Virus record (IMG/VR): IMGVR_UViG_3300023179_006727
Span: 1 to 64,000 of that record
Direction: 5' to 3' (one strand)
DNA: 64,000 nucleotides
Source of the DNA: a virus
Shown: positions 1,625-60,179 of the stretch, in pieces
Layout: each line of letters starts with the position of its first letter
Numbering within the stretch: the first letter of the stretch is position 1
The notes under the pieces: model-generated
Seen by the model: the letters and a program-made list of their open reading frames with translations, nothing else
Told to the model about the DNA's origin: nothing
The model's database searches: none
Made by a program: the position numbers and the translations under genes

Positions 1625-2680
1625 ATGAATCTTCACAAAACCCCAGGCAAACCCATCCGCACCTATGATGAAACAGGACAATGGCGTGATTGGAGCACAG
1701 ATGAACTCGTTGGCGCAAAACTAAATTACTTACAAGGATGGAAATGCGGAGCAGGTGTTGATAGCCTATTTATTGATATGGACGGGTTTATATGGACTGC
1801 TAGCTGCCGTGTAGGTGGTCAACTAGGTAGTGTATGGGATACTTTTGAAGTACCTAATCAATGGATAGATTGTACCAAAAACGTTTGTTCATGTGGTGCA
1901 GATCTTTTTATACCAAAAGCACAAGATGAAAAGAAAATCATATTGTTACGTCAAAGTCAAGAATTAGATACTTTAATGGATAGGCAAAACAATCAGATTA
2001 CCAATTTTGTAGCAATGGAGCGTACACACGCTAGTAACCAAAAACAAATATATTGGGAAATTGGCAGACGTTGTAATTACGATTGTTCTTATTGTTGGCC
2101 TTGGATTCATAACAATACCGATCCACATAAACCATTAGAAGATTTAATTCGAGCAACTAACTTACTTGAAGAAAAATTTATGCATGGTGAAAGCGTAAAT
2201 TTTATCATTAGTGGCGGCGAACCAACTGTTAATAAAGATTTTCTAGATTGGTTACGATATCTTAACGCATTTGGTCATCATATTAGTTTACATAGTAATG
2301 GATCACGTAAACCTGATTATTATCGTGAAGTTATACATTATGGTGATTTAAACTTATCAGTACATTTTGAGTTTTATGATCGAGCAAAATTTGTTAAAGT
2401 GGTAGAAGCTGTAACAGATGAAAAATATAAAAATAACAATTATAATGTAGGGCATCTTGAAGTAAAGTTTATGATGCCTCCACAATATGTTGAAGAATCG
2501 CTTTCATTAGAGGCAGAGTTAAAACAAATACCACACTTTACAGATTTTTGTACATGGGCTTTTGTTCCTATTCGTGGTGGTATGAGTAATAAATTTTCTA
2601 AACCCGAAGATGATAGTGGTGCTGAAATTATGGAAGGATATGCACCTGAGCATTATGTGCTTTTTGGTGATCGTAAATGA
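1625..2680 (+). CDS. Radical SAM protein with N-terminal SPASM/twitch-like Cys domain
   Basis: CNYDCSYC (CX3CX2C), SGGEP and SNGS motifs; N-terminal GWKC...ASC...CTKNVCSC. Confidence 0.9.
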   Translation: MNLHKTPGKPIRTYDETGQWRDWSTDELVGAKLNYLQGWKCGAGVDSLFIDMDGFIWTASCRVGGQLGSVWDTFEVPNQWIDCTKNVCSCGADLFIPKAQDEKKIILLRQSQELDTLMDRQNNQITNFVAMERTHASNQKQIYWEIGRRCNYDCSYCWPWIHNNTDPHKPLEDLIRATNLLEEKFMHGESVNFIISGGEPTVNKDFLDWLRYLNAFGHHISLHSNGSRKPDYYREVIHYGDLNLSVHFEFYDRAKFVKVVEAVTDEKYKNNNYNVGHLEVKFMMPPQYVEESLSLEAELKQIPHFTDFCTWAFVPIRGGMSNKFSKPEDDSGAEIMEGYAPEHYVLFGDRK

Positions 2681-4032
2681 TTCCAATATATCCTGATCGA
2701 CCTAATACATTATGTAATTATGCGTGGGATTACTTAATGTTTTATATTAGCGAACCAAGTTTCACTTACTGTTGTCGAACATCAAGGAAAAGAATTACTC
2801 CTGAATTATATCAAGCATTTGGTAGTGAATTATTTTCTAATTTACCTGAGCATATTGACCGTAGAAAGAGTTTACTTAATAATGAGCAGCATAGTGATTG
2901 TCATACGTGTTGGAGTTTAGAAAATAATGGGTTTAAAAGTGCACGTAATGATATAAACTTTGAAGGCTACATGGAACGTAATATGGGTATTATACCTAAA
3001 TCTAAGAGTGACTTAGTGAACAATCCACAATTACAGTTATCCACATATGCAAATATAATAGAAATTGTTTTAAACAATACATGTGATGCTAAATGCACTT
3101 ATTGTAGTGAACATTATAGCACACAATGGTATGCAGAAAAGAAAAAATACAACATACCAATGACAAGGGAAAGTAGTCAACTTGGCGAACGTGATCCAAA
3201 AGCTGAATATTACTTTTGGAAATGGTACGAAGAAGTTGGCATGCAAAAACTATTTCGTTTTGGATTTATTGGTGGTGAACCATTAATAACTGATTTGATT
3301 TATGAATGTTTTGACAAATTAATAGAAATTCATGAAAAAAATCCAAGAATAGAGTCTGTTCGTAATATGGGTAATGGCGATTATTTAGATAAAGTTGAGT
3401 TATGTATTACTACTAATCTTAATACTCCTGAATCGTATTTTAAAAAGTTCTTAGAATATTTGCCTAGATTACAACAGCATTTTAACATTATCATTCAAGT
3501 AAGCAGCGAAAATGTTGGAGAAGAATTAGAGTATATCAGGTATGGTGTTAAATGGAATCGATTTAAAAATAATTTAGAAAAGTTGTTTAGTTTACCTGAT
3601 TTAGTTACTATTTCGTTTATGCCATGTTTAAATTTACTTGGATTGCCATCTTTATACAAGTATGTTGAATATTTTAAACAATGTAATGAAAATTATTATC
3701 CATTTTCTATTCATCGCAATATTGTAACTTGGCCCAAAGAACAAAGCCCAATGTCTGCACCAAAAGAATTTGCAAGATATTTAGATAAACCAATCGAAAT
3801 ATTTGAAGAATTAATTAATGACCCAAAATATAAAAAAGCCAAACCTCATCACAATTGGGAAGTATTTAGAGATTTCTTAATCCAAACACGTGAAGCGATT
3901 GAAAATAATCCTCCGATGGATAATATGCAAGATAAAGGTGAAGAAGTGCTGATATTTTTTGAAGAATTAGATCGAAGAAGAAATACGAATTTTATAAAAA
4001 CATTTCCTGAATTTAAAGAGTGGGTTTTATAA
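2677..4032 (+). CDS. Radical SAM protein with N-terminal twitch-like domain
   Basis: CDAKCTYC, IGGEP and TTN motifs; N-terminal C..AW...CC...CHTCW; ATGA overlap with the upstream gene. Confidence 0.9.
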   Translation: MIPIYPDRPNTLCNYAWDYLMFYISEPSFTYCCRTSRKRITPELYQAFGSELFSNLPEHIDRRKSLLNNEQHSDCHTCWSLENNGFKSARNDINFEGYMERNMGIIPKSKSDLVNNPQLQLSTYANIIEIVLNNTCDAKCTYCSEHYSTQWYAEKKKYNIPMTRESSQLGERDPKAEYYFWKWYEEVGMQKLFRFGFIGGEPLITDLIYECFDKLIEIHEKNPRIESVRNMGNGDYLDKVELCITTNLNTPESYFKKFLEYLPRLQQHFNIIIQVSSENVGEELEYIRYGVKWNRFKNNLEKLFSLPDLVTISFMPCLNLLGLPSLYKYVEYFKQCNENYYPFSIHRNIVTWPKEQSPMSAPKEFARYLDKPIEIFEELINDPKYKKAKPHHNWEVFRDFLIQTREAIENNPPMDNMQDKGEEVLIFFEELDRRRNTNFIKTFPEFKEWVL

Positions 4033-5194
4033 TAACTAGCTCATTTCGCAATTGTGGAACAATATCAGCGATTTTTTTATCACGCAATTTTTCAAGTGTT
4101 TTGGTTCTATGTACCCATTGATTATGTAATTCATTACCTAAATAACCATTTTTTAAATAATCAATAACAGGTGAATATAAATCATTATAATTTAAATGAG
4201 TGTAATATTCTATTAATGCTGAGAGCGTTTCAGGTTGCAAAACTAAAGCAGATTGATTTTCAGGACGTAAAACAAAATGTTTAAAGTTCGGTCTTTTAGG
4301 TATATGTTCTTTTTGTGGATATAATGTGAGGATATTGTTTTGCCACCATTGTCTTAACTCTTCAAGATTAAAAATATTATAAACAGAAATTGCACAGCTT
4401 AAGGAAAAATGATTTAAATTTTTTAGTTTACTAAATCTAATCAAAGTTTTTGTTACATTGTCAATATCACTTGTATATTGCGTATTAGGTGCAAACCTAA
4501 TCCAAGTATTTAAGTCACCAATACCATCGATACTACAAACAAAAATAACACTTTTAGCTTGTTCAACTAATTCTAAAATAGGTTCATTAATCACAGTACA
4601 ATTTGTTGTAATCATAATATTGACATTATGTAGTTGATTAATTTCTTTTAATTTTTGCAATACAAGTAAATTTTCTTTATTTAAAAATGGTTCACCACCC
4701 TTAAGCCATAAAGTCATTAAGTTAGACAAATCAATATTATCTAATAATTTAGTAGCAATTTCTCTATTAATAGGTTCAATTTTATGTTTACCATCTTTAT
4801 TCCAACCATTCTTATTAGATAACTCTATCCAAGCACTACTCCAATCTTCATTACACATTGCACAAGCTAAGTTACACGTATTAGTACTACTATATTCTAA
4901 ATATAAAATTTTTTCAGTTTCATCATAAGGGATAGCATTATAAACATTTAATCTTACACTTGTTTTAGTTTTATCTTCACGATTTTTACAAAAACGACAA
5001 CTTGGGTGCCATCTACCTTCGAGCATATGTTTCTTAACATCTTGCATAAAATTGCTTGATCTTATTTCTTGAATAGTTTGCTCATTTAAATTACCACATG
5101 GATCTTTATAATCCCATGCACAGCAAGGATTTACACTTTTATTTGGATTAATAGTTAAACTATTAAATGGTGCGCTACATAATACTTTTTTCAT
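4013..5194 (-). CDS. Radical SAM protein with N-terminal twitch-like domain
   Basis: CNLACAMC, KGGEP and SIDG motifs; N-terminal CSAPF...PCC...CRFC. Confidence 0.9.
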   Translation of the reverse strand: MKKVLCSAPFNSLTINPNKSVNPCCAWDYKDPCGNLNEQTIQEIRSSNFMQDVKKHMLEGRWHPSCRFCKNREDKTKTSVRLNVYNAIPYDETEKILYLEYSSTNTCNLACAMCNEDWSSAWIELSNKNGWNKDGKHKIEPINREIATKLLDNIDLSNLMTLWLKGGEPFLNKENLLVLQKLKEINQLHNVNIMITTNCTVINEPILELVEQAKSVIFVCSIDGIGDLNTWIRFAPNTQYTSDIDNVTKTLIRFSKLKNLNHFSLSCAISVYNIFNLEELRQWWQNNILTLYPQKEHIPKRPNFKHFVLRPENQSALVLQPETLSALIEYYTHLNYNDLYSPVIDYLKNGYLGNELHNQWVHRTKTLEKLRDKKIADIVPQLRNELVIIKPTL

Positions 5195-6540: not shown

Positions 6541-7952
6541 AATAGTTTTTTGCACTCTTCTAAAAATGATATCATTTCAGGGAAAGTTTCTTCATAATTT
6601 AAATTACGTCTTTGGCGCATCTTTTCAACATTCAACGCAAACTCTTTCCTAGCATCATCACTTTTTTCAGGATTCTCGATACCCTTTTTTACCGTATATA
6701 AAAAGCTAATATAATGATCCCATCGACCAAATAAGTTATACGTGCCAGGTGTCACCTTCGCACTTTTTAATTCATTCATCATAATATCAATAGTTTCTAT
6801 AACATACTTTGAATATTCTACAGGCAAAATGTATGGACTTAACCAATGTGGATGACTGACTTGATTTTGACGTAAATGTATTCTACGATTAGTCCTGTTT
6901 TGTAAATCAATAATCCACCTAAAGAAGTTTGGCAAATCTGATATACATAATGCATTTAATGCTATTTGTAAATTAAAAATTATACGTTTTTGGTCAGGGT
7001 CAATTAAGTTAATAAACTCAATATAATTTTCTATATTGTTAGTCATGATTTCCCAATCTGTGCCTGTTCTAATATATTCTGCACGTTGTCCAATACTTTC
7101 ACAACTGACATTAAAATCTAAAGTAAACTGTTCCACACCAACAATTCTCATCGTAGTATCTAACCAACGATCATAAAACTTCTTTGGTGTATTAAAATTA
7201 GTAACAATAGAAAAATCAATATTTTTTTGTTCTGTCTTATGATCCTCGTAAAACTCACAAATACGATCAGTATAGCTATAAAATTTATCAATAATTAATG
7301 GTTCACCACCGATAAAGTTAATACAGTAAGTGTTCCATCCACTTTCGTTTTCAAACCAATCCCACCAAAATGTTTCATAAACTGTATCTTTGATCTTTGG
7401 TAGTTCAGTCTCCATTTCTTCAGGTTTAATTTCACCATACTTTAATCGTTCTGCCGCCCATTGTGAACTATAATGATGATGACAGTACAAACACTTTAAG
7501 TCACATATGTTACCCAAACTAATTTCAATCATGTTAGTATGTGGTAATCTAGATAACATCTCAAATTCATCAGAGGTAAGATTATATAGTTTTTCTTTTA
7601 ATTCATCACGTGATAATGTAGGCCAAAGTTTTTTTGATTGCACAAAATTGACAAAACGATCCCATCCTGTTCTTGGACTTTTTGCACCGCTATCTTCAAT
7701 ATCCCAACATACTGAACAGGCATCATTACGAATACCACGTAACATGTCTTTACGCACATTTACAATAGGTGGGAAATGTGTAAACAATCCACGCTCTAGT
7801 CGCCAATCTTCAGGTAATATTTTATGACTTTTACTACGACAACAATTTCTTAATTCATTACGTGAAATGTTTAATACACTATAATCCCATGCAAATTGGC
7901 ATACAGTATCTTTAATATCACCTTCACGTTTAATCTCAATGACTTGATTCAT
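6537..7952 (-). CDS. Radical SAM protein with N-terminal twitch-like domain; paralogue of 2677..4032
   Basis: CDLKCLYC and IGGEP motifs; CQFAWDY...CCRS...CSVCW; HYSSQW matches HYSTQW of the paralogue. Confidence 0.9.
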   Translation of the reverse strand: MNQVIEIKREGDIKDTVCQFAWDYSVLNISRNELRNCCRSKSHKILPEDWRLERGLFTHFPPIVNVRKDMLRGIRNDACSVCWDIEDSGAKSPRTGWDRFVNFVQSKKLWPTLSRDELKEKLYNLTSDEFEMLSRLPHTNMIEISLGNICDLKCLYCHHHYSSQWAAERLKYGEIKPEEMETELPKIKDTVYETFWWDWFENESGWNTYCINFIGGEPLIIDKFYSYTDRICEFYEDHKTEQKNIDFSIVTNFNTPKKFYDRWLDTTMRIVGVEQFTLDFNVSCESIGQRAEYIRTGTDWEIMTNNIENYIEFINLIDPDQKRIIFNLQIALNALCISDLPNFFRWIIDLQNRTNRRIHLRQNQVSHPHWLSPYILPVEYSKYVIETIDIMMNELKSAKVTPGTYNLFGRWDHYISFLYTVKKGIENPEKSDDARKEFALNVEKMRQRRNLNYEETFPEMISFLEECKKLL

Positions 7953-7961
7953 AAGTTTTAT

Positions 7962-14418: not shown

Positions 14419-14841
14419 TTATGTTATATCTTCTTCAATTACAACAAAACTCCAACTAATAGTGTAAGTATTAGTACCCCCCAATTTAATGTATCTTCCT
14501 GCTGGCAAATACAAAGGCCCATAATTCATGAATTCTAACATAGTCCCTATTCCAGCTACACCACTAATAACCCCGGTTGCACCCGTCCATCCAGGACCTT
14601 CATTAAATATAATGTTCAAAATTCTAAAATATTGAGACCCAGCCGATTGAGTAAAAATCGTTCCAGTAATATTTAAACTTCCTGCAATAATGTATGCGTA
14701 ATTCGGGTCGGTATTAGCAAACGGCGCATAAAAATATGCATTTCCAACTACTTTAGCTGTTCTACCACTTGGTACCGTGTAGATAGTTGTCTCAGAGTTT
14801 GCTAGAGCCGCTCCCGCAAATGATTTTATATATCTAGCCAT
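14419..14841 (-). CDS. Small beta-rich putative tail-tip/receptor-binding protein (copy B)
   Basis: MARYIKSF...YTVPSGRTAK...NYGPLYL...VVIEEDIT; SD and ATAAATA upstream. Confidence 0.75.
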   Translation of the reverse strand: MARYIKSFAGAALANSETTIYTVPSGRTAKVVGNAYFYAPFANTDPNYAYIIAGSLNITGTIFTQSAGSQYFRILNIIFNEGPGWTGATGVISGVAGIGTMLEFMNYGPLYLPAGRYIKLGGTNTYTISWSFVVIEEDIT

Positions 14842-14892
14842 TTTCTTTTTTCCTTTTTTGTATTTATTATATCATATAATAATGCTTTAATT

Positions 14893-15227: not shown

Positions 15228-15365
15228 GATACTATTTAATATTAAATATTAAGGTGTATTTTTTTCTATTTATGGTTTATTTTAATTAAATAAAAACCTT
15301 CAAAAGTAAATTAATTTACCTTTGTGGTCGTTAATTGAGATGGTAGCTTGCTAAACATGAGGTTT

Positions 15366-15623: not shown

Positions 15624-15645
15624 ATTATTTCCTTTATCATTTATA

Positions 15646-45273: not shown

Positions 45274-45720
45274 TTATACAGTGCTCGCTTGCCCTGTACT
45301 TCTATCTAAAAGCACAGCAAGATTTACAGGATTATTAAATGGAGTAAATGCAATTTCAAGCTCTAATAAAATGCCATTCTCTTGATTATTAATATAAACT
45401 GATCCTAAAATAATTCTTGGATCTTGTGAAATTATTCTGCGTACTTCATCTTCAATTTGACCCAAAACAATAGTACTATTTGGTTCAAATAAAAATCCCC
45501 ATAGTGTAGAACCATAAGCAGGTTGACCAACTTTATCTCCCTGTTTAATATTAAAGGCATTCAATAGGTCACGAATTATTAAATTTTCATCAGTTAAAGT
45601 AAATTTTTTAGTAATTGGAACAGGTCGAGTTATTCCTGCAACGCCCCCAAATTTACCAGGCTCAGTAAATCTAGTTAATAATCCAAGTTCTTGAGTTGAA
45701 AATCCGTAATATGTAGCCAT
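45274..45720 (-). CDS. gp25: Baseplate wedge subunit/sheath initiator, gp25-like
   Basis: DLLNAFNIKQGDKVGQPAYGSTLWGFLFEP...DPRI. Confidence 0.88.
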   Translation of the reverse strand: MATYYGFSTQELGLLTRFTEPGKFGGVAGITRPVPITKKFTLTDENLIIRDLLNAFNIKQGDKVGQPAYGSTLWGFLFEPNSTIVLGQIEDEVRRIISQDPRIILGSVYINNQENGILLELEIAFTPFNNPVNLAVLLDRSTGQASTV

Positions 45721-45741: not shown

Positions 45742-48700
45742 TTAAGTTGCATTTTCACCTGCAGATTCTTGCTTTAACAATGTTGCATATGCTGCTTCAG
45801 CTTCTTGTAGACTTTTTAATCTCATATCTGCTTTTTCTATCCATTGTTGGTTTAATCTTAGATATGCTGCCTTATCAATTTTTCCTTCTTGATAATTTTC
45901 AATTATTTTTTGGCGGTATAAAATTAATTCTTTAGTTTTTGCTGTTTCTTCTTGTACTCGTCTACCTGCTTCTTCAATTGCTATTTGTTGTTGATTAGGC
46001 TCTTCAGGAGTTTTCGGACCTACCGCAAAAACAGGAGCAGGTATTTTGGCATCGCCTACTAATGATCCTGATTTTGCAATTATTGCAGCACTATTAAAAG
46101 TTCCCGTAGCTATAATTGGTGTTTTCAATTCTGAATTAATAGATGCTAATGATCCTACTTTTGTCAAAATCTGACCATTTACCCCACCTGCTGCTTTTTG
46201 TAAATTTTCTCCAACCGCACTAATCGATGCTTTTGATGCATTCACCGCCGATGGAATATTACTTACATTGCCTGCTAAATTTTTAAAAGTATTTGTCACT
46301 GCTCCTGTTACAGCTTGAACTAGTCCATTTGCAGATTTTGCTGCAGACGAAACTAAAGAAGATGCATTAGTGCCAACTGTTGATACTATTTTATTAACTA
46401 TATTAGATGTATCTTTTCCTGTAACAGAATTTGTTATCGTATTTACTACAGAACCCACTCCCCCAGGTATCGCATTTGACCCACTATTTGCAGTCGTTGC
46501 TACCATGGCTGCGCCACTTGTTATTTTATTTGATATTGCTTGCATATTTTGTGCATTTAATGAACCACCTACCGCACCTTTAACTATTGAAGCATCTACA
46601 CTTCCTGTTGATGAAGCTACATTAGATTGTTGTTCTTTTTCAATTTGTGCTAAAGCTTGTTTTAATTTTTGGCCTGCTTCATCCCACGCTGCTTTGTTTT
46701 CAGGTGTTTTATCAGCGTAGTAAATTTGTAATTTTTCTCTAACATCTTTGTATAAAAATTCAATATTTGCAATTGCTTTTGTATTTACTCCTAAAGGTAA
46801 TGCAGGTTCACCACCACCTAAAACATTTGGTTCTCCTGCTTTTAAGTTAGTAAATGAAGCTTCTATACCACGAAAAGCTTGTTCAGCCAATGATTGTAAA
46901 TTATTTGCTGCCCCTTTAATTGCACTACTTACCGCATTTACTGTTCCTGATACTGCATTATTGATACTTGAAGCAACTCCTGTCATCCCATTAAGTGCTT
47001 TATCTGCTAAACTACCTGCAAAATTTCCACTAGCAACATCATTACTGATCTTAGCAAGTGAAGCTGTATTACCATTAAGTGCTTTAGTAACTGTACCAAT
47101 ACCTTGATTTGCTGTTGCCATTGCCAAACCTGTTACTTGAGTGACATTTAAATTCGGAGAAATTGCCCCTGTATTTTGTAATTGTACAACACTTTTATTT
47201 AAAGTATTTACAAATGCTCCTACTTGTGCAGAAGAATTATTAAGAAATTGTTGTGCACTTTGTGCTCCTTGAGAACCTGTCAAAATACTATTTGATAAAG
47301 CAACTGATTCAGGGAATCCTGCGTCAAGTTTTCTTTGAGCTATGATGTTGCTGCCTGGTTTAATTACGCCGCTTTCAGCCATTTGTGTTAAAGATGAAAC
47401 CTTTGCACCAACCAATCCATTTGCAGTAGCAGCAGCATTACTTAAAAATGAATTATTTGTAGCCTGTTGAGCAATTAATGTTAAATTAGTATTATTTGGC
47501 AAAACATTCTTTGTTCCGATATTAATATTCGCATTAGCTGCAGCAGTCGATGTTGTAGCAGGTGTTTTAGGTGAAGATGGTACAGCATTTTGTAAAGCTT
47601 GTGTTTTAGGTGGAGCTTCGGGAGCTGCTTTTGCCGCAACTAAACTAGATTTTACTGAAACTCCCCCTGTAGTACCATTGGTTTCAGGCATAGGATAATG
47701 GCTTGTTACACGGGTGGTAATGCTTTGGAGTTTGCCTGGGGTGTTGATCCATCCTTTTTCAGTAGAATAGATCGTATCAGGATAATTTTTTGGTTTATTT
47801 TCTTCTACATCTTTTGCTATTACAGAAGGATTACGAGTATTTAATTGAATATTTTTCCCTTTTATTACAACATCCGCTCCGTTACTATATAAATTTGCTT
47901 CTCCTTTACTTTGTAATGCCACGCTATCGTTAGCGTACACTGTGTATTTGTTACCCGCACTTGAATTAAAATCAGTACCTGCACGATTTGTAATAGTCGT
48001 TTCTGATTCTATACCAATAGTATTTGCTCTTATACGAAAATCTTTGCCTGCATGCATGTTAATATGTTGATCAGCATGAAAATTTAAATCACCTAATGTA
48101 CGCACGTTAAAACTGTTGGTAGAAAATACATCAATTGCACCTTCACTATTCATTTCTATCCAACTTTGACCATTACTATGCATTAAAAACAATGTTTGTC
48201 CATCATCACTCATAGTAATTTGATGACCACCTGCACTACGCAAACGAATAAGTTGATTATTTCCTTCGATGTCACCATCATCCATTACTAACGAATGACC
48301 ACCTGTTCTACCTATAACTTTAAACTTTTTAGGATTTTTTTCATCCTTTATTGCATTTTTAATCGTTTGATTATTAAAACCACCCTCGTAGATTTCGCCA
48401 CCTGGGGTGCTGATGCCAAATACTCTGCTTGGAGTTTCACGGTATGTGCTACTTGATATAACACCACGAGTGCTATCCCTAATCAAACCCTGTTGGAACA
48501 AAATTGCTGCCTGATAAGAATGTACAGGTCTTGGTTCTTCATAAAATACTGCACTGTCATTAATACCTGAATTATTAGTATTAATTTCTGAAACAGGTAA
48601 AATATCTGCACCACCATAAGATGTAGATTCTGTTTTATTAGGTACAACCCTACTCGACCCAGGAGCCACCGCAGGAACCATATTATGCACCTCTACTTTT

Positions 48701-49086
48701 GGTATGCATCCTATATAATATCCTTGATTTATAAAACCATTAACAAATAAGCAAATTACTTCTGTTCCTATATCAGGTGGTGTAGCCCAAAAACCATAAC
48801 TTTGTGGATTGTTTTTAAAATCACCTGCGGTGTCGCTTGGGGAGTAGGAGTCAAGATACCCATAAAATGGGCTTAAATATCTAACAGGAATCCAACTTGC
48901 GCTATCTTCAGGGTTATTACTTTGTTGTATTCCTGATATCCAAACTTTTAAAATTCCTGTTCTACATGCATCAATACTATCTTTTACAATGCCAATTCGT
49001 GGCTCTCTTATTAATGAAGCACCACCACGATCTGTTTTTAATTGAGCAGGTGTTCCTCTTGCTTTTGGTAAATTATTTGCTGCCAT
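45742..49086 (-). CDS. gp5: Baseplate hub/central spike, gp5/VgrG-like, with long Ala/Ser/Asn-rich C-terminal extension
   Basis: OB-fold (GIVKDSID...LKVWI...PPDIGTEVICLF...YIGC); beta-helix repeats (GHSLVMDD, GHQITMSD). No lysozyme domain recognised. Confidence 0.75.
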   Translation of the reverse strand: MAANNLPKARGTPAQLKTDRGGASLIREPRIGIVKDSIDACRTGILKVWISGIQQSNNPEDSASWIPVRYLSPFYGYLDSYSPSDTAGDFKNNPQSYGFWATPPDIGTEVICLFVNGFINQGYYIGCIPKVEVHNMVPAVAPGSSRVVPNKTESTSYGGADILPVSEINTNNSGINDSAVFYEEPRPVHSYQAAILFQQGLIRDSTRGVISSSTYRETPSRVFGISTPGGEIYEGGFNNQTIKNAIKDEKNPKKFKVIGRTGGHSLVMDDGDIEGNNQLIRLRSAGGHQITMSDDGQTLFLMHSNGQSWIEMNSEGAIDVFSTNSFNVRTLGDLNFHADQHINMHAGKDFRIRANTIGIESETTITNRAGTDFNSSAGNKYTVYANDSVALQSKGEANLYSNGADVVIKGKNIQLNTRNPSVIAKDVEENKPKNYPDTIYSTEKGWINTPGKLQSITTRVTSHYPMPETNGTTGGVSVKSSLVAAKAAPEAPPKTQALQNAVPSSPKTPATTSTAAANANINIGTKNVLPNNTNLTLIAQQATNNSFLSNAAATANGLVGAKVSSLTQMAESGVIKPGSNIIAQRKLDAGFPESVALSNSILTGSQGAQSAQQFLNNSSAQVGAFVNTLNKSVVQLQNTGAISPNLNVTQVTGLAMATANQGIGTVTKALNGNTASLAKISNDVASGNFAGSLADKALNGMTGVASSINNAVSGTVNAVSSAIKGAANNLQSLAEQAFRGIEASFTNLKAGEPNVLGGGEPALPLGVNTKAIANIEFLYKDVREKLQIYYADKTPENKAAWDEAGQKLKQALAQIEKEQQSNVASSTGSVDASIVKGAVGGSLNAQNMQAISNKITSGAAMVATTANSGSNAIPGGVGSVVNTITNSVTGKDTSNIVNKIVSTVGTNASSLVSSAAKSANGLVQAVTGAVTNTFKNLAGNVSNIPSAVNASKASISAVGENLQKAAGGVNGQILTKVGSLASINSELKTPIIATGTFNSAAIIAKSGSLVGDAKIPAPVFAVGPKTPEEPNQQQIAIEEAGRRVQEETAKTKELILYRQKIIENYQEGKIDKAAYLRLNQQWIEKADMRLKSLQEAEAAYATLLKQESAGENAT

Positions 49087-49098
49087 AGTATTTTATCT

Positions 49099-51795
49099 TT
49101 ACGGAAATGTTGGTGGTTCTCTTGTTGAATCAGGTGGCGGAACTCTTGCCAATAATCTTGAATTTTCATTTTGTATTACAGCATCATCATTAAATGCTTG
49201 ATTATTTAAATTAGGGGTAGATTGAACAGCAAAATCATAAGGAGGTTGCCAAGTAGGAGTTGGAGCAGGTTTTAGATCACCTGTTTTATTATTGTTATTA
49301 ACAGCATTTGCTTGTGAAGTTTCCCTAGGATTAGTGTTATTTGGGGTTGCTTTGGAGTTAGATTTAAAAAAGGCTCCTGGGTCGATTAGAACACCGTTTA
49401 AATCCTGAGTAAATTTTCCACGAGAAAAATTACTAGTAACATGGCGTAGCATATAAACTAAAGAATCACTATCTACTGCTTCATCACTAAATTGTTTTGA
49501 ATTATAAAAACCTATACTAGCATTTAATCCCATCAATCCATTTTCTTCTGAGTATTGCACCGAACTATTTCTTGGATTTAATATTGCGTTATAATCTACT
49601 GCTTCTTTAAATGATATTTCTACAAAGACTTGACCTCCATTTGGATTTATAGTATAACCATCATAGCTATATACACTAAATTTTTTATAAAAATTTTCAT
49701 TTAATGTATCAGTTCCAACAGATTGAGTAAGATAATCAGGATCTCCTAAAATAGTTGCTTTAAATTCAACTTGATCTTTTGGACTTGTTAACGCAGTAGC
49801 TATTTGAGCAGTTTGGCTTCCTGTAATCCCACCTCCACTGCTATCAATAGGAGCATCAGGACCGCCCAACGCTGAAATAGGTGCACTACCTAAATTATTA
49901 CTATTAGTCTTATCTTGCCCTGTTGTTTGTGCTAGTAACAAATAAAATAATCCACTATAATTTTGCTCATAACTGATTATTTCACTATTTTTTCCTGTTA
50001 ACCAATACTCATATTTTTTGTGTGCACCCGTATATTGTGCCCTAGCACCTACATAAGGACTACGTACATAAGGAATTTTAAATTCGTGAATTTGATAAGT
50101 TATGTCATATGCCCAATCTTTACGTTTAGCGTCCCAAGCACGAGGTTTTACATATGGATTAACATGATACCAATTTAAATTTTTAGTTGAAGCTTGATTT
50201 TCAGTCTCACCTTCATCTTCAGATGGAGTATTAACTTGATTGATTGCGTTTATGACATAATCACTTTGTCTAATAATTTGATCAATAGCACTTAGTATTG
50301 GAGTTGGTGATATCGGAACATTGGTTGCAGTTGATATTCCTATAGTGTTTTGAGATTCTTGTACATTACTTTCATAACTAACATCTACATCTGAAGTCAC
50401 TGTATTTGTTTTATCTAGTATAGATATTTTTAATTTTGAATTTAAAATATCACTACCGTTTTCAAATTTGATAAAATAACGATCTACCTCATCAATGACA
50501 TTAGAACCCTTTAAAGACTCTTGTATACTGTTTAATTGTGTAACTAAACCATTTGTTCCTGTTAATATCTGATTTACAGTGCTGCCTTTACATGATATAG
50601 TAGTAGGAACAATGCCACGTTTTGATCCATAAGCTACACTAATTGACATTGGAGCAGCTTTAATATTGTAAACAGTTGCTTTACCATCTAATTTAAATTT
50701 AAATTCAGTGATTTTTATAACATAAAATCTTTCAAAAATTGCATCAGGTGTAGTGCCCATTGTTTCATTAGGGCTAAACTTTTTAGAATCAACTAATGCT
50801 CCATTTTCATCATAACCATAAAATCTTACAGCTAAAACAAAATGTTGATCTAATGGATTTGGTGTTTTGTTTGGATTTCTATTATTTAAAATTTGACTGT
50901 TTTGGTACAAATTTTGTACAGCTTGTACTAATTTAGTGGGTAATGAAAAACTATTAGGTTCTATAATTTTAAATTCAAAATTCATCCCACTCGCAGGTCC
51001 TCCTGGGATCATTAAAATTGTCTTAAAACTTAAGTCATCGATATAGTAGTCGTAGATCATGCCTGGGGCACGAAGGGCAGGATTACCAACCCCTGCACTT
51101 TGAGCAATAATATACGCTTGTGGTTTTGATCCTGAACTAGTTGGAAGCATTGTATTAATATTTCTAAATTGTGATTCTTGTAGATTTGTTATTGCATCAG
51201 GATTTGCCATATACCATGTTATATTATAAGTATAACTAGATAACATACTTAGTGGATTAAATTGCCGACGACCAGGTATCGTACTATCATCACCTGCAGG
51301 TGCACGAATTGTTACAGTTTGGTTAGCAGATCCTGTATTTGTAGTATTTTGTGTAACACCATCACCACTTGGATTATTAACACCTGTAGCGACACCTTGT
51401 TGACTAGGTTTGTTTTCTTTATTATCATCATCTGATGCGGTTGATGATGGTTCATCTTGATCTACAGTATCACCTGTTTCACCTTCTGTAACTGTTGAAG
51501 ATTCAGGTGGCGTTGGTTCCGTAACAGGTTTTGGTTCAGTTGCAGGTGGAGCAGGATCTTCTTTGGGTTTAGGTTGTAAGGCAGCTAATATTTCACTAAT
51601 ATTATTATTAGCAATATTTGTTAATGCCTCTTCTGAACCTTCGGCTGATGGGGATCCTTTAAATCCACTTATAAATGTCGCAGTTGAAAAATTACTAATA
51701 GATCCAAGATCTATAGATCGTTTTGTACCTGTTAATATAACTCTTCCTGAAGCAGAAAGTGAAAAATTAAAACCATTTATTGTAATTGAACTCAT
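49099..51795 (-). CDS. Probable baseplate hub protein (gp27-like) with Pro/Thr/Asp-rich N-terminal linker
   Basis: FEFKIIEP, TILGDP and VTSNFSRGKFTQDL motifs; lies between the gp53-like and gp5-like genes. Confidence 0.6.
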   Translation of the reverse strand: MSSITINGFNFSLSASGRVILTGTKRSIDLGSISNFSTATFISGFKGSPSAEGSEEALTNIANNNISEILAALQPKPKEDPAPPATEPKPVTEPTPPESSTVTEGETGDTVDQDEPSSTASDDDNKENKPSQQGVATGVNNPSGDGVTQNTTNTGSANQTVTIRAPAGDDSTIPGRRQFNPLSMLSSYTYNITWYMANPDAITNLQESQFRNINTMLPTSSGSKPQAYIIAQSAGVGNPALRAPGMIYDYYIDDLSFKTILMIPGGPASGMNFEFKIIEPNSFSLPTKLVQAVQNLYQNSQILNNRNPNKTPNPLDQHFVLAVRFYGYDENGALVDSKKFSPNETMGTTPDAIFERFYVIKITEFKFKLDGKATVYNIKAAPMSISVAYGSKRGIVPTTISCKGSTVNQILTGTNGLVTQLNSIQESLKGSNVIDEVDRYFIKFENGSDILNSKLKISILDKTNTVTSDVDVSYESNVQESQNTIGISTATNVPISPTPILSAIDQIIRQSDYVINAINQVNTPSEDEGETENQASTKNLNWYHVNPYVKPRAWDAKRKDWAYDITYQIHEFKIPYVRSPYVGARAQYTGAHKKYEYWLTGKNSEIISYEQNYSGLFYLLLAQTTGQDKTNSNNLGSAPISALGGPDAPIDSSGGGITGSQTAQIATALTSPKDQVEFKATILGDPDYLTQSVGTDTLNENFYKKFSVYSYDGYTINPNGGQVFVEISFKEAVDYNAILNPRNSSVQYSEENGLMGLNASIGFYNSKQFSDEAVDSDSLVYMLRHVTSNFSRGKFTQDLNGVLIDPGAFFKSNSKATPNNTNPRETSQANAVNNNNKTGDLKPAPTPTWQPPYDFAVQSTPNLNNQAFNDDAVIQNENSRLLARVPPPDSTREPPTFP

Positions 51796-52094
51796 TATAA
51801 TCCTAATACCGCTTTTAATGTTTCCGCTGTTGGTAAGTAAATATAAATTCCTTGCACAAAATCAAATAATGGATTAATTAATTTATTTGGATTACGTTGT
51901 GCGAATACCCACCATAATTTTGGATCATCATATAAATCATAAGCTAATAAATCAGGTCGCAAATGATAGGTAGGACCTATTTGCCAATATAAATCAGATG
52001 GATTTTTTGGTATTGCTCTATTAGTCATAACATCTAAGTAATTGTTGTTAACAATATTTGTAATATAATACGGACTTGTTGATGGATATTTCAT
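51795..52094 (-). CDS. gp53: Baseplate wedge protein, gp53/LysM-like
   Basis: RPDLLAYDLYDDPKLWWVFAQRN...IYLP. Confidence 0.8.
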   Translation of the reverse strand: MKYPSTSPYYITNIVNNNYLDVMTNRAIPKNPSDLYWQIGPTYHLRPDLLAYDLYDDPKLWWVFAQRNPNKLINPLFDFVQGIYIYLPTAETLKAVLGL

Positions 52095-54422
52095 TTACCA
52101 AACTCCTCCACCATAACCTGCATTTTTACTTCCATTTAATAATTTACCTGTTGCATAATCTTTCAAACTAAATTTATTACTGACCATTCTTCTTGTTACA
52201 ATAGGATGAAAAGTTAAACTCATACTCATTTTAGTTGGAATTCTTGTTGTTTCACCTGTCACCACATTTTTAAAAATTGGTGGCGTATTAAGTCCACCTT
52301 TTGCTAAACGATTAGCTTGTAATCGATTTACCTGCGAAAGAATTGGATTACTTGAAGATGCAGGTGCATTTACTTGTTGATTACCTTGTACAATAGTTTG
52401 TGTTATATCACCTGCCATAATATAATCAACATCAGCAGGTAATGTATATTGAAATTGTGCCAATACCATAGGATGATTATCAAATTGATATTCACCAAAA
52501 CCACTTAAATACAATAACGGTGGAGGAATTCCTGCCTTTGGTGATTGATCTTGTCCATAAAACATTTTTGATGCACTGCGGAAAAAATGTATTACTGCTC
52601 GCAAATATGCTGCTTCTGCTATATTTTGTGCAGTAAAATCTGCATTAATACTTATATCACTTACTGAGCTACCACGATAACTAAAGATTTTGTAATTACT
52701 ATGAGTAGGTTCAGTGGCATCATAATTAGCTGAATATGATAAACTTACTTGAGGCGTATAAGGAAATATTACCCCATTTGTAGATTTTAAAGGCCAAAGT
52801 ATGTCTGTTTGTTCTGCAATATTATAAAAATATGGCGCACTTGGAGCAAGACTTATACGAACACGCCAATCAATTGCTTTTTCAAATTTTACTGATGCTG
52901 ATTGATTACTGTTTTTACTATCACCTACAAATTGATCCGTATTAGGGGATGCGGTTACTGCTATAGATGCGCCTGCGGCGGTTGGCAGAAAACCCTCTGC
53001 TTCACGTAAAGCGTTAGCTTCATCATCACGTCTTTGTGCATCAGCCATTGCATTTGATATATCATCTGCCCCGCTTATATCAGGTGGTTCTGTAATAAAG
53101 AAACTTGGCTCACTAAGACTATAGTCAAAAACATCATCCAAGATTTCTGAATAATATACATCCTCCTTTTGATCTATGGTTGGTGCTGAAGAATAACGTA
53201 CCAATGCTTCTTCGTTATATGCATTTTCCAACTGAGTGATTGTACTTGTAGGAAATCCACTCGAAAGAATTTCTAAATTAGTTATACCATTATCTTTGAT
53301 CCATTGAGCTTTTTGAGCAAGAGTATATGTACCCCAATCACTAGGAACATGTGTAAAAGATCCTCCTTTACGTTCAAAATAAAAACCTACTGAAGTATTA
53401 ATATCATATATACGACTTCCACCATTATTAATAAAACGTTGTTCTTCGGGCGGAAGAGTATATTCAGTAAAATTTACATTAAATGTTTTAGATGTTGTGT
53501 TTCCATTTGCATCTGTTATAATTATAGTAGTAGGAAGGGCAGCATTGGGAACGGCTAGACTAGTACTACCTACTTTTCCATAAAAAGTAGCGTTGTTGCT
53601 GCCTGGATTATAGGTGAGATTAAGGTTAACCAAACCCTCAAATCCGCCAGGTGACCTGTCATTTCTATCAAAAGTAAAATTATAAGGAGGTTGCCCACCT
53701 ATACTTGATACATCAATCGAAAAGTCCTGCCCCCAAACTGCGTTTAAAGTTTGAGAAGTTGTAAATGCCAAAGGAGTATTACTCGTAGCGGTACTGCTGC
53801 TATTTTGATTTTGTATAGCAGCAATCGTTGCAGTAGTTGAAACATTGTTGCTTGCTTGATTCGAATTATTGTCATTGATTGTTGTATTATTGCTTATTGG
53901 GGGCTGAGTCGGAGGAGGTGGAGAAGGTGGTGGTTCATCAACAATTTTTATTTCCTTATTTTGTACCTGATTTTTCCAAAATGCATATTTGTCCCAATAA
54001 TTAGGATCTACGCCACCGCCGCCTGGGGCAATTGTCTTGTTAACTGTATCAACATAATATTTTCCATCATCATTATCTGCCTGTGCTAAAAATGTTACTA
54101 CTTCTGTTGGAGTATATCCCAATGCTCTTGATAGGTCTTCAACATTAGCTCCATATAATGATCCATATGGATGTCGTACTTCGAAAAGAATGTCACTTGC
54201 AACATATCCTGGCTTATCGGGATGCGCCTTTAAGCTTTCAGTTACAATTTTTTTAATTCTTTCATCAGTTAAACCACCAAATTCCCCCCCCGCCCCATCA
54301 AAATCAGTTCTAGATAATATATTTCTTGATATATCAACAAATAAATTATTAAATTCCTTCTGAGTAATAGTTTTAATTTCATTAGTAGTTGAAACATTAT
54401 TGCTTGCTTGTTCATCTGCCAT
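52095..54422 (-). CDS. Tail tube initiator/baseplate (gp48/gp54-like) protein with long variable N-terminus; start at 54422 preferred
   Basis: C-terminal FPYTPQV...THSNY...FFRSASKMFYG...PPPLLYLSGFG. ATG 54422 has an AAGGG SD and TAAATA at 54442-54447, which lies inside the longer 54467 call. Confidence 0.7.
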   Translation of the reverse strand: MADEQASNNVSTTNEIKTITQKEFNNLFVDISRNILSRTDFDGAGGEFGGLTDERIKKIVTESLKAHPDKPGYVASDILFEVRHPYGSLYGANVEDLSRALGYTPTEVVTFLAQADNDDGKYYVDTVNKTIAPGGGGVDPNYWDKYAFWKNQVQNKEIKIVDEPPPSPPPPTQPPISNNTTINDNNSNQASNNVSTTATIAAIQNQNSSSTATSNTPLAFTTSQTLNAVWGQDFSIDVSSIGGQPPYNFTFDRNDRSPGGFEGLVNLNLTYNPGSNNATFYGKVGSTSLAVPNAALPTTIIITDANGNTTSKTFNVNFTEYTLPPEEQRFINNGGSRIYDINTSVGFYFERKGGSFTHVPSDWGTYTLAQKAQWIKDNGITNLEILSSGFPTSTITQLENAYNEEALVRYSSAPTIDQKEDVYYSEILDDVFDYSLSEPSFFITEPPDISGADDISNAMADAQRRDDEANALREAEGFLPTAAGASIAVTASPNTDQFVGDSKNSNQSASVKFEKAIDWRVRISLAPSAPYFYNIAEQTDILWPLKSTNGVIFPYTPQVSLSYSANYDATEPTHSNYKIFSYRGSSVSDISINADFTAQNIAEAAYLRAVIHFFRSASKMFYGQDQSPKAGIPPPLLYLSGFGEYQFDNHPMVLAQFQYTLPADVDYIMAGDITQTIVQGNQQVNAPASSSNPILSQVNRLQANRLAKGGLNTPPIFKNVVTGETTRIPTKMSMSLTFHPIVTRRMVSNKFSLKDYATGKLLNGSKNAGYGGGVW

Positions 54423-54441
54423 AGTAATACCCTTATTTTTA

Positions 54442-54520
54442 TATTTATGACTAAATAAAAGTGCCATTTTTACCTAATAAATCCTAATATATTGATTTTT
54501 TTGTTAATATTATGTAACAT
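54442..54520. promoter_or_regulatory. Divergent control region: back-to-back late boxes plus a sigma70-like promoter for gp55
   Basis: TATTTA-tgac-TAAATA at 54442-54457; TTGATT(54492-54497)-N17-TAACAT(54515-54520); GGAG SD before ATG 54547. Confidence 0.6.
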
Positions 54521-54546
54521 TATAGGTATTATAACTACGGAGCATT

Positions 54547-56430: not shown

Positions 56431-56470
56431 TAATTTGACTTTAGTATTTACGCTGTTATACATTCTATGA

Positions 56471-57487
56471 ATGAGTAAATTATTTAAAAAGGCAGCAGTT
56501 TTCACTGATATACATTTTGGAATGCGTAATAACAGCATCCAACACAATGAGGACTGCATACAATTCGTTGATTGGTTTATAAAAACTGCCAAGAAAGAAG
56601 GGTGTGAAACCTGTTTCTTTCTTGGAGATTGGCATCATAATCGTGCCACAGTCAACGTTCTTACCCTAAATTACAGCTTAAATGCATTGGAAAAATTAAA
56701 TGAATCGTTTGACTGCGTTTATTTTATTGTTGGTAATCATGACCTTTATTATCGAGATCGTCGTGACGTACAGAGTGTTGAATGGGCTAAGCACCTTAAA
56801 AGAATTCGTATTTGTAACGATTGGGTTATTGATGGCGATTGTGTCATTGCTCCCTGGCTTATTGGGGAAGATTATAAAAAAATACAAACCCTAAACGCAA
56901 AATACCTGTTTGGTCACTTTGAACTACCATCATTTTATATGAATGCTATGGTTGAAATGCCCGATCACGGTGAAATCAACCGTAATCACGTATTACAATT
57001 TGGGCATGTTTTCACAGGACATTTTCATAAAAGACAAACAAAAGGAAACGTAACATATATTGGTAACGCATTTCCGCATAACTATAGTGATGTAAATGAT
57101 GATGATCGTGGTATGATGATACTAGAATGGGGTAAAGAACCACAATTTCGTTCTTGGGATAATCAACCTAAATTTCGTTCGTATACTTTATCAGAAATTT
57201 TGGATAACCCTGATAAATTACTGTTACCTAATACAAGCGTAAAAATACAAATTGATCGTGAAATCAATTACGAAGAATCAAGTTCAATCAAGGAAACTAT
57301 TATGAAAGAATATAATTTAAGAGAAATGACCTTAATTCCACAACGTGTTGACATTGAAACTGATACCACAGATCAAGTAAACTTACAATTTGAGAGTGTT
57401 GATACTATTGTATTGTCACAAATTGAACAACTTGAAGCAGGTGCTTATGATAAGCAACTGCTACTTAACATTTACAGAAATTTATGA
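56471..57487 (+). CDS. gp47: Recombination endonuclease subunit (Mre11/SbcD-like)
   Basis: Phosphoesterase motifs DIHFG, LGDWHH, VGNHD and GHFH. Confidence 0.92.
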   Translation: MSKLFKKAAVFTDIHFGMRNNSIQHNEDCIQFVDWFIKTAKKEGCETCFFLGDWHHNRATVNVLTLNYSLNALEKLNESFDCVYFIVGNHDLYYRDRRDVQSVEWAKHLKRIRICNDWVIDGDCVIAPWLIGEDYKKIQTLNAKYLFGHFELPSFYMNAMVEMPDHGEINRNHVLQFGHVFTGHFHKRQTKGNVTYIGNAFPHNYSDVNDDDRGMMILEWGKEPQFRSWDNQPKFRSYTLSEILDNPDKLLLPNTSVKIQIDREINYEESSSIKETIMKEYNLREMTLIPQRVDIETDTTDQVNLQFESVDTIVLSQIEQLEAGAYDKQLLLNIYRNL

Positions 57488-59649: not shown

Positions 59650-59666
59650 AGATATAAGTAAAATAT

Positions 59667-60179
59667 ATGCCATCTGCTAGTAAAATTAAAGGAAGTTCAT
59701 TTGAGAGGGATATTGCAAAATATTTGTCCGATCTATATAATGAGTCTTTTGTACGTGTTCCAAATAGTGGAGCATTTATTGGTGGTATTAACAAAGATAG
59801 GAAATCTTATTTGCATGAGGGACAGGTTCGCAGTTTTAAGGGAGATATAATTCCTGGGGAATCGTTTCAATTATTAAATATAGAATGCAAAAACTATGCA
59901 GATTTTCCGTTCTATCAAATTCTAACTACATGTAAATTATTAGATGATTGGTTAGATCAATTGATGGATGTAAGTGATAAGGATGATTTGAACGTTCTTT
60001 TTATGAAATTCAATCGTAAAGGTCGTTATATTGCAGTAGAACAAAAACATAAATGGAAAATGAACAATTACTTAGTATATCATAGTGATATATATGGTTC
60101 ATGGATTATCTCAGAATTAGAACATTTTTTTAAATTAAACTCAGGTCTCTTCAAAACTCTCTCCAAAAATAATACTTAG
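59667..60179 (+). CDS. Holliday junction resolvase-like PD-(D/E)XK nuclease
   Basis: SKIKGSSFER, SGA, GDII and IECK motifs. Confidence 0.8.
   Translation: MPSASKIKGSSFERDIAKYLSDLYNESFVRVPNSGAFIGGINKDRKSYLHEGQVRSFKGDIIPGESFQLLNIECKNYADFPFYQILTTCKLLDDWLDQLMDVSDKDDLNVLFMKFNRKGRYIAVEQKHKWKMNNYLVYHSDIYGSWIISELEHFFKLNSGLFKTLSKNNT

Follow-up and report, generated by a model that had tools for sequence, protein, structure and literature searches.

Strand-polarised cytosine halos around CCWGG sites in an uncultured phage lineage that purges CCAG

Restriction-site avoidance in virulent double-stranded DNA phages, in which short words are removed by synonymous codon choice (Rusinov et al., 2018; PMC6286503), is among the closest described relatives of the pattern that we report here for the first 64 kb (hereafter the window) of a 101,734-bp viral contig of 33% GC, IMG/VR record IMGVR_UViG_3300023179_006727. 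In this DNA the word CCAG is removed by the same means, and nearly every CCWGG that is left lies within a zone of about 31 nt, here called the halo, in which synonymous third positions carry C on the strand that reads CCAGG. The locus differs from that literature in two respects: the key word is an asymmetric 4-mer, whereas the words avoided in the survey are nearly all palindromes of orthodox Type II systems, and no compensating changes in the ~30 bp around irremovable sites are described there. A second likeness is to flank dependence of the MfeI type, in which neighbouring bases tune cleavage (Kamps-Hughes et al., 2013; PMC3675476); its symmetry parallels both the polar halo at CCAG and a dyad-symmetric halo that we find at GGWCC, but in that system one or two adjacent bases have few-fold effects with limiting enzyme, whereas at least ten synonymous positions over ~31 bp are involved here. 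The window's contig (G000) forms a clade with three IMG/VR relatives, G001 (43 kb), G003 (74 kb) and G004 (158 kb). All four are fragments, 12-45% complete (the largest 45%, the window's contig 27% by CheckV), and all negative gene searches below are to be read within that range.

The Dcm/Vsr pathway shares with the halo a site-anchored, strand-specific action at CCWGG. In Escherichia coli it consists of a strand-specific nick at CCWGG followed by short-patch resynthesis, and it shapes oligonucleotide frequencies: very-short-patch repair raises CCAG and CCWGG and lowers CTAG, operates on either strand and with any central base, and involves faithful resynthesis only 3' of the nick. In the clade, by contrast, CCAG is depleted (0.15 of expectation), CTAG is at 0.79, and the halo is both two-sided and polar; moreover, the C5 cytosine methyltransferase family PF00145 has no match in the four fragments (12-45% complete), Vsr itself not having been searched for. 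A further precedent comes from Type III and Type IIE escape, where T7 with EcoP15I sites in one orientation, and T3 and T7 with refractory EcoRII sites, evade the enzyme through orientation or spacing. There, as would hold here, recognition sites are kept yet made harmless by a property outside the site; the difference is that site orientations in the clade are balanced and random, and the property concerned is flanking base composition. Nothing in the literature that we searched describes flank halos or a system specific to CCAG, in keeping with an earlier note on this DNA which knew of no described system with this signature.

The CCAG purge and the Pro-Gly trap

Over the four clade genomes CCAG occurs 290 times against 1925 expected under a Markov model (ratio 0.15), which makes it the sole non-palindromic 4-mer below 0.67 of expectation. 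The palindromes CGCG (0 versus 162 expected) and CCGG (10 versus 123) are purged more strictly still. Since CTAG is at 0.79, the palindromic set CYRG does not fit, and CCAG/CTGG is itself not a palindrome. On the window's whole contig there are no CGCG, three CCGG and 82 CCAG/CTGG where 306-493 would be expected, 60 of the 82 being CCAGG; the window alone holds 56 CCAG, compared with 484 CCTG and 450 CCAC. Of the CCAG words that remain, 80-90% are CCAGG.

Codon pairs in the four genomes reveal how the word was removed. CCA precedes a codon starting with G in 131 instances (118 of them before Gly) versus 1118 for CCT. Ahead of GG the pattern is reversed for the other NCN codons, with GCT used 16 times versus 626 for GCA, ACT 10 versus 654 for ACA, and TCT 2 versus 275 for TCA, so that NCT before GG totals 28 and NCA before GG 1555. 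The word has thus been eliminated on both strands by the choice of synonymous codons and codon pairs. Because these are third-position T/A swaps and not the products of deamination, the purge represents selection against the word in double-stranded DNA, and it is proof that CCAG does this lineage harm in some way.

One dipeptide offers no way out. Pro-Gly spelled CCA GG contains CCAG, CCT GG contains CTGG, and both CCC GG and CCG GG contain CCGG. Every spelling therefore holds either CCAG/CTGG or the more strictly purged CCGG, which makes the CCWGG sites unavoidable leftovers. Pro-Gly is written with CCW in all 215 of 215 cases, and the dipeptide is itself under-represented, at 0.64 of expectation. 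The intrinsic asymmetry of the anchor, CCAG, accounts for the fact that a halo around it can have polarity.

CCAG is not the only word affected. AGCGCT, CGATCG, TGGCCA and GACGTC are absent clade-wide, GTCGAC and CAGCTG are nearly so, GGCC is down to 0.40 of expectation, and GGATCC, TGCGCA and GGCGCC are also reduced in the four genomes, in which ATGCAT, TTCGAA and CTTAAG show no purge. The word profile of the clade is that of ordinary multi-enzyme restriction avoidance. The purged set seems to resemble the restriction repertoire of freshwater cyanobacteria, in particular of filamentous and colonial ones, and gives no more than a lead to the host.

The halo at CCWGG sites and among relatives

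The window contains exactly 45 CCWGG sites (on the plus strand, 21 CCAGG and 24 CCTGG), in agreement with the roughly 45 that the earlier note had counted by eye, and 44 of the 45 are in-frame Pro-Gly codon pairs, CCW GGN. Third positions were counted at codon offsets -4 to -1 and +1 to +5. At the 23 CCA GG sites, 105 of 207 third positions are C and 15 are G; at the 21 CCT GG sites, 11 of 189 are C and 75 are G. Background values are 7.9% for C and 8.4% for G. The difference in polarity is highly significant (Fisher p = 1e-28; binomial p = 5e-59 and 9e-32 for the two classes), so the strand-polarised halo proposed in the earlier note is borne out, and the eight examples it quoted, at 1643, 30622, 40981, 51062, 27358, 40651, 27811 and 21422, read as it stated. 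Over a zone from -10 to +20, counted from the first C of CCAGG, which matches the extent of about 30 nt given there, C exceeds G on the CCAGG-oriented strand at 42 of the 45 sites (ten phase-2 positions per site; Table 1), the exceptions being 32836, 51002 and 53647. Three sites had been called mixed or opposite in the note: 32836 is truly opposite, but 54208 is only weak, and 56853 lies out of frame, where a phase-2 count falls off the third positions.

A pooled profile of 230 sites from the clade gives the shape of the halo. C is raised 4-6-fold at every third position from -10 to +17, 2.8-fold at +20 and ~1.9-fold at -13, +23 and +26, while first and second codon positions are essentially unaltered. 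G is depleted to 0.3-0.6 of its background downstream of the sites and is not depleted upstream. When only the 192 isolated sites of the clade are considered, a weak G-enriched zone appears at -25 to -16 (13.7% versus 8.7% of third positions, p = 5e-6), the strand polarity switching near -13 from this upstream G zone to the C halo, and a downstream tail with C raised and G lowered extends to +38. Site orientations are balanced in each of the four genomes (31 plus and 29 minus, 33 and 42, 27 and 29, and 16 and 23), and runs tests of their order gave |z| of 0.2-2.0, with z from -2.0 to +1.9 and opposite signs among the genomes.

The base spectrum is informative about the rule that is obeyed. Four-fold degenerate positions near CCA GG have 18% A (background 43%), 30% T (43%) and 49% C (7%); near CCT GG it is G that is raised, to 59%. 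In two-fold Y codons near CCT sites C stays at the background value of 14%, though it is the only route to a higher GC content, and in two-fold R codons near CCA sites G gains no more than about 2-fold. The CCAG strand takes C at every position where the genetic code permits it, and this rule is neither a T>C signature nor a drive to more GC. The earlier note had read the pattern as T>C (equivalent to A>G on the other strand), which does not hold, as A, T and G are all replaced by C. No dinucleotide is eliminated within halos; there is a general shift to C, and CpG is up 2.5-3-fold.

Controls on the four pooled clade genomes place the anchor at CCAG itself. The halo is absent at CCA without a following G and at CCT without a following GG; at Ala-Gly, Thr-Gly, Ser-Gly and Pro-Pro; and at GGC or GGG after residues other than Pro. 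The control words GGACC, CCACC, GCAGG, CCATGG, CCAAGG and GGTACC have no halo either. In an unbiased scan of the 400 dipeptides Pro-Gly ranks first, and in unbiased scans of all 4- and 5-mers CCAG and CCAGG have the largest flank effect size. The note had named an equal enrichment around any Pro or Gly pair as what would refute it, and none is present at CCAAGG, at CCT not followed by GG, or at the other Pro or Gly pairs; its view that the signal operates at the DNA level, anchored on the asymmetric CCAG and independent of the gene strand, is upheld. CCAG sites other than CCAGG have no halo, including ten in a 14.4-16.0 kb stretch of the window. That stretch (14419-16038) is unusual in that the ten words, together with one of the contig's three CCGG, are clustered in 1.5 kb; its small open reading frames (ORFs; 14.1-16.0 kb) have no PHROG match, and Pfam and PHROGs show nothing DNA-related among them. 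It looks like recently acquired DNA in which the purge is still pending.

A second, weaker halo surrounds Gly-Pro GGWCC, with dyad symmetry. In 177 GGACC-oriented sites pooled from the clade, G is up at -10, -7 and -4 (0.20-0.28 versus ~0.10) and C at +8, +11 and +14 (0.20-0.27), irrespective of the central base and with a sharp end at +/-12; Gly-Pro as a dipeptide occurs at 0.49 of expectation. Control phages without the purge likewise have the G half upstream (0.245 versus 0.140), so this pattern is only partly specific to the clade.

Comparison with relatives tied the halo to the site. The contigs G001, G003 and G004, whose hub proteins are 58-72% identical to that of the window, share the purge, and their halo has identical limits. 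The control set, comprising Vibrio phage 2.275.O and 80 contigs with 78-90% capsid identity, gave no purge of CCAG, CGCG or CCGG in any of the 81 genomes and no Pro-Gly halo, C at CCA GG flanks being 18.2% against a background of 18.3%. Halo and purge thus occur together in 4 of 4 clade genomes and in 0 of 81 controls. Within the hub gene, a site in the near-identical peptide VFGISTPG-EIYE (one residue after the site differs) has C-ending codons beside CCA and G-ending codons beside CCT: three genomes read GGC ATC AGC ACC CCA GGT ... ATC TAC and the fourth reads GGG ATA AGT ACG CCT GGG ... ATA TAT. The halo is gone where relatives have Pro-Leu in place of Pro-Gly. Traces of transition are found as well, namely a ghost halo in the window near 48838 (CCA AGC), where the site has been lost and the C-rich third positions persist, and a CCT GGT within a C halo in one relative, at which its sister has CCA GGC. 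In pairwise comparisons, genomes carry 4.2-5.8 C of 10 where the site exists, and the positions orthologous to sites absent from the partner carry 1.0-2.0 C of 10 in three pairs (5-10 such sites each) and 3.0 of 10 in a fourth pair with only two such sites. The halo tracks the site: it is present with it, near background without it, and on the other strand when CCA and CCT are exchanged.

The most closely related pair, the metagenome contig L104 and the G001 lineage (L003), is 98.86% identical over 19.4 kb, and all 24 sites are common to both. At one of them the central base is opposite and nine consecutive synonymous differences fall in 28 nt (L003:18444-18471), the alleles being GGG ACG CCT GGG GTG ACG GGT ACT GAA CCT and GGC ACC CCA GGC GTC ACA GGA ACC GAA CCC, with four direct C/G differences; we judged by eye that the window site 40651 is its orthologue. 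Among the 39 flipped sites in the genome pairs compared, both genomes are correctly polarised at 26, and re-polarisation, or the exchange of whole alleles by recombination, is fast relative to flipping. The L003/L104 alignment is itself a mosaic over the 19.4 kb, identical stretches alternating with blocks of 2-8% divergence (0-41 mismatches per 500 nt), a structure that indicates recent recombination between lineages. Metagenome contigs from four lake and soil runs, aligned to 36500-56499, gave 270 differences; among the 40 of these that were listed, most belong to conserved pieces of related phages.

Armour, rewriting and other explanations

Our leading explanation, held tentatively, is that the halo is a selected sequence context, or 'armour', around irremovable CCAG sites, directed against a strand-asymmetric nuclease that reads CCAG. 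CCAG would be harmful through a strand-asymmetric, DNA-targeting enzyme of the host or of the phage itself, most likely a nuclease of the restriction type whose footprint takes up the ~30 bp around the site or whose remote cut falls inside that span. C:G pairs in the orientation of the halo would reduce the chance that such a site is bound, opened or cut, and halo and purge would be two answers to one agent, the halo serving those sites that the protein sequence keeps. We favour this account because the purge demonstrates that CCAG does harm, and a single agent explaining both features would be the most economical solution. A ~7-fold purge that leaves ~60 sites per 100 kb would pay only if those sites were largely harmless, a state that armour would bring about, or if the harm were additive per site. 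Among the three options of the earlier note, the one with the best support, taken in general terms, is selection around a site to which a defence enzyme binds, in view of the size of the purge, the restriction of the halo to purging genomes, and the identity of CCWGG as a synonymously irremovable CCAG.

The reach of the halo is ~10 bp on one side of CCAG and 14-17 bp, with a tail, on the other. Among cut-at-distance enzymes, those of Type IIS and IIG reach 10-16 nt, and those of Type IIB and of the MspJI type release ~32 bp; by analogy, the span of the halo would be similar to the DNA that such enzymes cover or excise. There is also precedent for the principle, as flanks are known to alter cleavage efficiency symmetrically at palindromic sites and in a side-dependent manner at asymmetric ones (PMC3675476). 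A turnover test was made at sites of kept orientation, considering the target base in permissive codons, with a predicted ratio of relaxation rates (halo C to background) of 2.2-2.6 if the halo is mutational and ~0.55 if C is kept by selection. The two larger pairs gave 0.71 (confidence interval 0.47-1.07) and 0.83 (0.56-1.41). Halo C's thus turn over no faster than background in the two best-powered pairs, which counts for armour. In the 98.9% pair, with the flipped site left out, halo C changed at 2 of 55 positions versus 81 of 714 other G/C third positions (odds ratio 0.29, p = 0.11).

A number of points weigh against this explanation. It has to posit both a CCAG-reading enzyme and a preference for C:G over G:C along three helical turns, the latter with no known physical reason. 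A strongly selected polarity should suppress flips of the central base, and this suppression is not seen: orientation is kept at 61 of 100 aligned sites over four genome pairs, compared with 784 of 1141 (0.69) ordinary Pro CCA/CCT codons, so that flips, occurring at the neutral rate, are not suppressed. The complete nine-codon re-polarisation between genomes that are 98.9% identical counts against it as well. As for turnover, ratios of 1.17 and 2.15 came from the two smaller pairs, each with a broad interval, and the test is confounded in that positions differ in their tolerance of C, which biases the ratios low. An asymmetric 4-mer is also atypical as an avoided word; reported systematic avoidance is nearly confined to orthodox palindromic Type II systems, being rare for Type III and not reported for Type IIG or Type I (PMC6286503). 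Lastly, known flank effects span 1-2 bp and not 30 bp (PMC3675476).

The strongest rival, though an unlikely one, is a site-anchored, strand-specific rewriting in which CCAG is nicked or cut, repair of a patch from about -12 to +20 writes C, and purifying selection leaves only the synonymous changes, so that the halo would be a scar. It would accommodate the neutral rate of central-base flips, the correct polarity of both genomes at 26 of the 39 flipped sites, the run of nine differences in L003 and L104, the smooth fall of enrichment with distance and the long downstream tail. In the 98.9% pair, furthermore, A/T third positions within halos changed at 5 of 56 versus 96 of 3078 elsewhere (p = 0.03). 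Rewriting nevertheless requires an enzyme activity by which any of A, T and G becomes C, on one strand only; to our knowledge none is known in phages or bacteria. The 2.2-2.6-fold turnover of halo C that it predicts is not seen in the two best-powered pairs, CCAG sites other than CCAGG have no halo (although these may just be young), and the purge still demands selection as a second, separate cause. The excision and resynthesis suggested in the earlier note fares in the same way, as the flip rate fits it but a hypothetical polymerase or editor that writes C is needed. We consider it doubtful that a CCAG-anchored process of an undescribed kind, natural to a phage-host system, rewrites ~30 nt of one strand to C, repeatedly and fast enough to re-polarise after flips.

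Two further proposals are improbable. In the first, a chemical-shield variant of armour, a partial and context-dependent modification of C or G would use the halo as a landing pad, its C:G pairs putting the modified bases on the strand that the enzyme contacts. Consistent with this, it is always C on the CCAG strand, and G on its complement, that is enriched and never GC content as such, and the window holds a radical SAM island (1625-10077) with seven ORFs matched by PHROGs or Pfam, two of the Pfam matches being just below the curated cut-off. However, Pfam and PHROGs show no connection of the island to DNA chemistry, and the four clade fragments (12-45% complete) yielded neither a C5, N6 or N4 methyltransferase nor a TGT/DpdA, in line with the earlier statement that the responsible gene is not identifiable in the window; PF01555, PF02384 and PF01702, like PF00145, have zero matches in any fragment, a result which at this completeness carries little weight. 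A phage that purges many Type II words presumably also has largely unmodified DNA.

The second, as hard to credit, is that the halo aids break repair by making the 3'-ending strand at a break G-rich, thereby favouring pairing, end protection or re-ligation; this would place the cut ~12-14 bp upstream of CCAG, at 10-12 nt from CTGG on its 3' side. The weak G zone ahead of the C halo with its polarity switch, and the dyad-symmetric GGWCC pattern, agree with this, and the CCAG and GGWCC patterns obey one rule, each strand being C-rich 3' of the putative cut point. Against it, the two arms at CCAG are very unequal (1.6-fold over ~10 nt versus 5-fold over 30 nt), and the upstream-G half at GGWCC is shared with phages that do not purge. 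RecA-type pairing prefers GT, and the benefit of G-rich 3' ends is extrapolated from this preference.

The remaining two explanations can be dismissed briefly. A site-guided deaminase, listed first in the earlier note, would convert A to inosine on the CTGG strand and so leave T>C changes on the CCAG strand; it would produce the T depletion and C enrichment of the latter, but it is contradicted by the greater loss of A than of T at four-fold sites, by A>C being at least as frequent as T>C, by the small gain of G in two-fold R codons near CCA and by the four direct C/G differences at the flipped site, where a deaminase yields transitions only, and we give it almost no credence. Scarcely any more can be given to the view that the halo is a side effect of composition, of the peptide context of Pro-Gly, or of translation, with codons chosen to suit a slow Pro-Gly bond: nearly all sites are Pro-Gly and a GC-rich word would itself favour GC-rich neighbourhoods, yet other Pro codons, other X-Gly pairs and control words of equal composition lack the halo, as does Pro-Gly in the 81 related phages, and the polarity is set by the synonymous third base of Pro. 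Two other candidates were ruled out by reasoning. Polarity caused by forbidden words, with GC rising while CGCG, CCGG, GGCC and CCAG are avoided, would concern adjacent bases only and be blind to the central W; a G-quadruplex or hairpin fails in that C at every third base gives neither G-runs nor self-complementarity.

Sites, genomic setting and implications

The individual sites of the window are listed in Table 1. One 6306-codon ORF on the minus strand (22338-41258) holds 15 of the 45.

Table 1. CCAGG sites of the window and one ghost halo. Counts are of C and G at ten third (phase-2) positions on the CCAGG-oriented strand; a minus sign denotes CCAGG on the minus strand.
Feature	Span	Strand	Counts and remarks
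CCAGG 1643	1633..1663	+	7 C, 0 G
CCAGG 6745	6735..6765	+	4 C, 2 G
CCAGG 14591	14581..14611	+	2 C, 0 G; inside the 14.4-16.0 kb stretch retaining other CCAG words
CCAGG 17670	17654..17684	-	4 C, 2 G; halo overlaps that of 17694
CCAGG 17694	17678..17708	-	4 C, 2 G
CCAGG 18390	18380..18410	+	3 C, 0 G
CCAGG 18636	18626..18656	+	3 C, 0 G
CCAGG 18909	18893..18923	-	5 C, 1 G
CCAGG 20294	20284..20314	+	2 C, 1 G; weak
CCAGG 20732	20722..20752	+	6 C, 0 G
CCAGG 21260	21244..21274	-	4 C, 1 G
CCAGG 21422	21412..21442	+	5 C, 2 G
CCAGG 23221	23205..23235	-	5 C, 1 G
CCAGG 27358	27348..27378	+	8 C, 0 G; strongest of the window
CCAGG 27811	27801..27831	+	6 C, 0 G
CCAGG 28060	28050..28080	+	5 C, 0 G
CCAGG 28699	28689..28719	+	4 C, 0 G
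CCAGG 29665	29649..29679	-	3 C, 0 G
CCAGG 30622	30606..30636	-	7 C, 1 G
CCAGG 32836	32826..32856	+	0 C, 4 G; opposite polarity, interpreted as a recent flip of the central base
CCAGG 36526	36510..36540	-	4 C, 2 G
CCAGG 37036	37020..37050	-	5 C, 0 G
CCAGG 38482	38466..38496	-	7 C, 0 G
CCAGG 40243	40233..40263	+	6 C, 0 G
CCAGG 40513	40503..40533	+	5 C, 0 G; G001 orthologue flipped
CCAGG 40651	40641..40671	+	6 C, 0 G; scored as flipped versus G004
CCAGG 40981	40965..40995	-	6 C, 0 G
CCAGG 43187	43171..43201	-	3 C, 0 G
CCAGG 44732	44716..44746	-	7 C, 0 G
CCAGG 45656	45646..45676	+	2 C, 0 G
CCAGG 46463	46453..46483	+	4 C, 0 G; relatives have the CCA form with a coding-strand C halo (hub alignment column 930)
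CCAGG 47354	47338..47368	-	5 C, 0 G
CCAGG 47735	47719..47749	-	6 C, 1 G; Pro-Leu orthologues without halo (hub alignment column 452)
CCAGG 48401	48385..48415	-	7 C, 1 G; L003 orthologue uses CCT with a G halo for almost the same peptide (hub alignment column 230)
CCAGG 48659	48649..48679	+	6 C, 0 G
Ghost halo	48826..48855	-	GAC TCC TAC TCC CCA AGC GAC ACC; Pro-Ser here, Pro-Gly (CCA GGC) in L003
CCAGG 49376	49360..49390	-	3 C, 0 G
CCAGG 51002	50986..51016	-	1 C, 3 G; exception
CCAGG 51062	51046..51076	-	7 C, 1 G
CCAGG 51272	51262..51292	+	2 C, 0 G
CCAGG 53602	53586..53616	-	6 C, 0 G
CCAGG 53647	53637..53667	+	2 C, 2 G; mixed; oppositely oriented site 53602 at 45 nt
CCAGG 54022	54006..54036	-	4 C, 1 G
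CCAGG 54208	54192..54222	-	2 C, 1 G; weak
CCAGG 56853	56837..56867	-	sole site that is not in-frame Pro-Gly; first C is codon position 2
CCAGG 59853	59837..59867	-	3 C, 0 G

The contig encodes T4-type proteins, among them baseplate wedge and hub proteins, a gp55-like late sigma factor, gp46/47-like nuclease subunits, a portal protein and a major capsid protein, the last being ~65% identical to those of the jumbo myoviruses Vibrio phage 2.275.O, Serratia BF, Pectobacterium CBB and Pseudomonas PA5oct. Lake and other freshwater metagenome contigs from at least six studies carry near-identical DNA. Taken together, these protein and metagenome matches make the contig, to judge from its genes, a fragment of an uncultured freshwater T4-like jumbo phage, a myovirus of virulent type. 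A search for further members of the clade with the hub protein, an 898-aa protein and a 643-aa protein returned only the four IMG/VR contigs and one metagenome contig. Within the window, the five ORFs 3' of the radical SAM island (10083-13989) have no family match. Two features lie on the same contig beyond the window: a stretch of ~5.7 kb (73865-79537) with almost no ORF of more than 50 codons in the standard code, no tRNA, and three CCAGG sites with weak halos; and, just outside the window, a set of three copies of a repeat unit that includes gaaaaacaagcagtgCCAGcacaaaaaccacaagt at 64933-65083 within the ORF 62104-65358, each of which has an unpurged CCAGC.

In textbooks, the passive defence of phages against restriction is word avoidance, which has so far been treated as all-or-nothing for each site. 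This lineage shows that sites forced by the protein sequence are handled too, in that their surroundings are altered over a long stretch and in a strand-specific manner. If the halo is armour, it would be the evolutionary footprint of an uncharacterised enzyme, giving both its asymmetry and its reach (~10 bp in one direction, 17-20 bp in the other); it would supply a rule for making enzyme-resistant DNA without a change in protein, and it would mean that the geometry of enzyme-DNA contacts can be inferred from phage genomes alone. If it results instead from rewriting, the halo would point to a natural, site-directed and strand-specific rewriting activity. On either reading, further phages can be screened for this signature at words that they, too, are unable to avoid.

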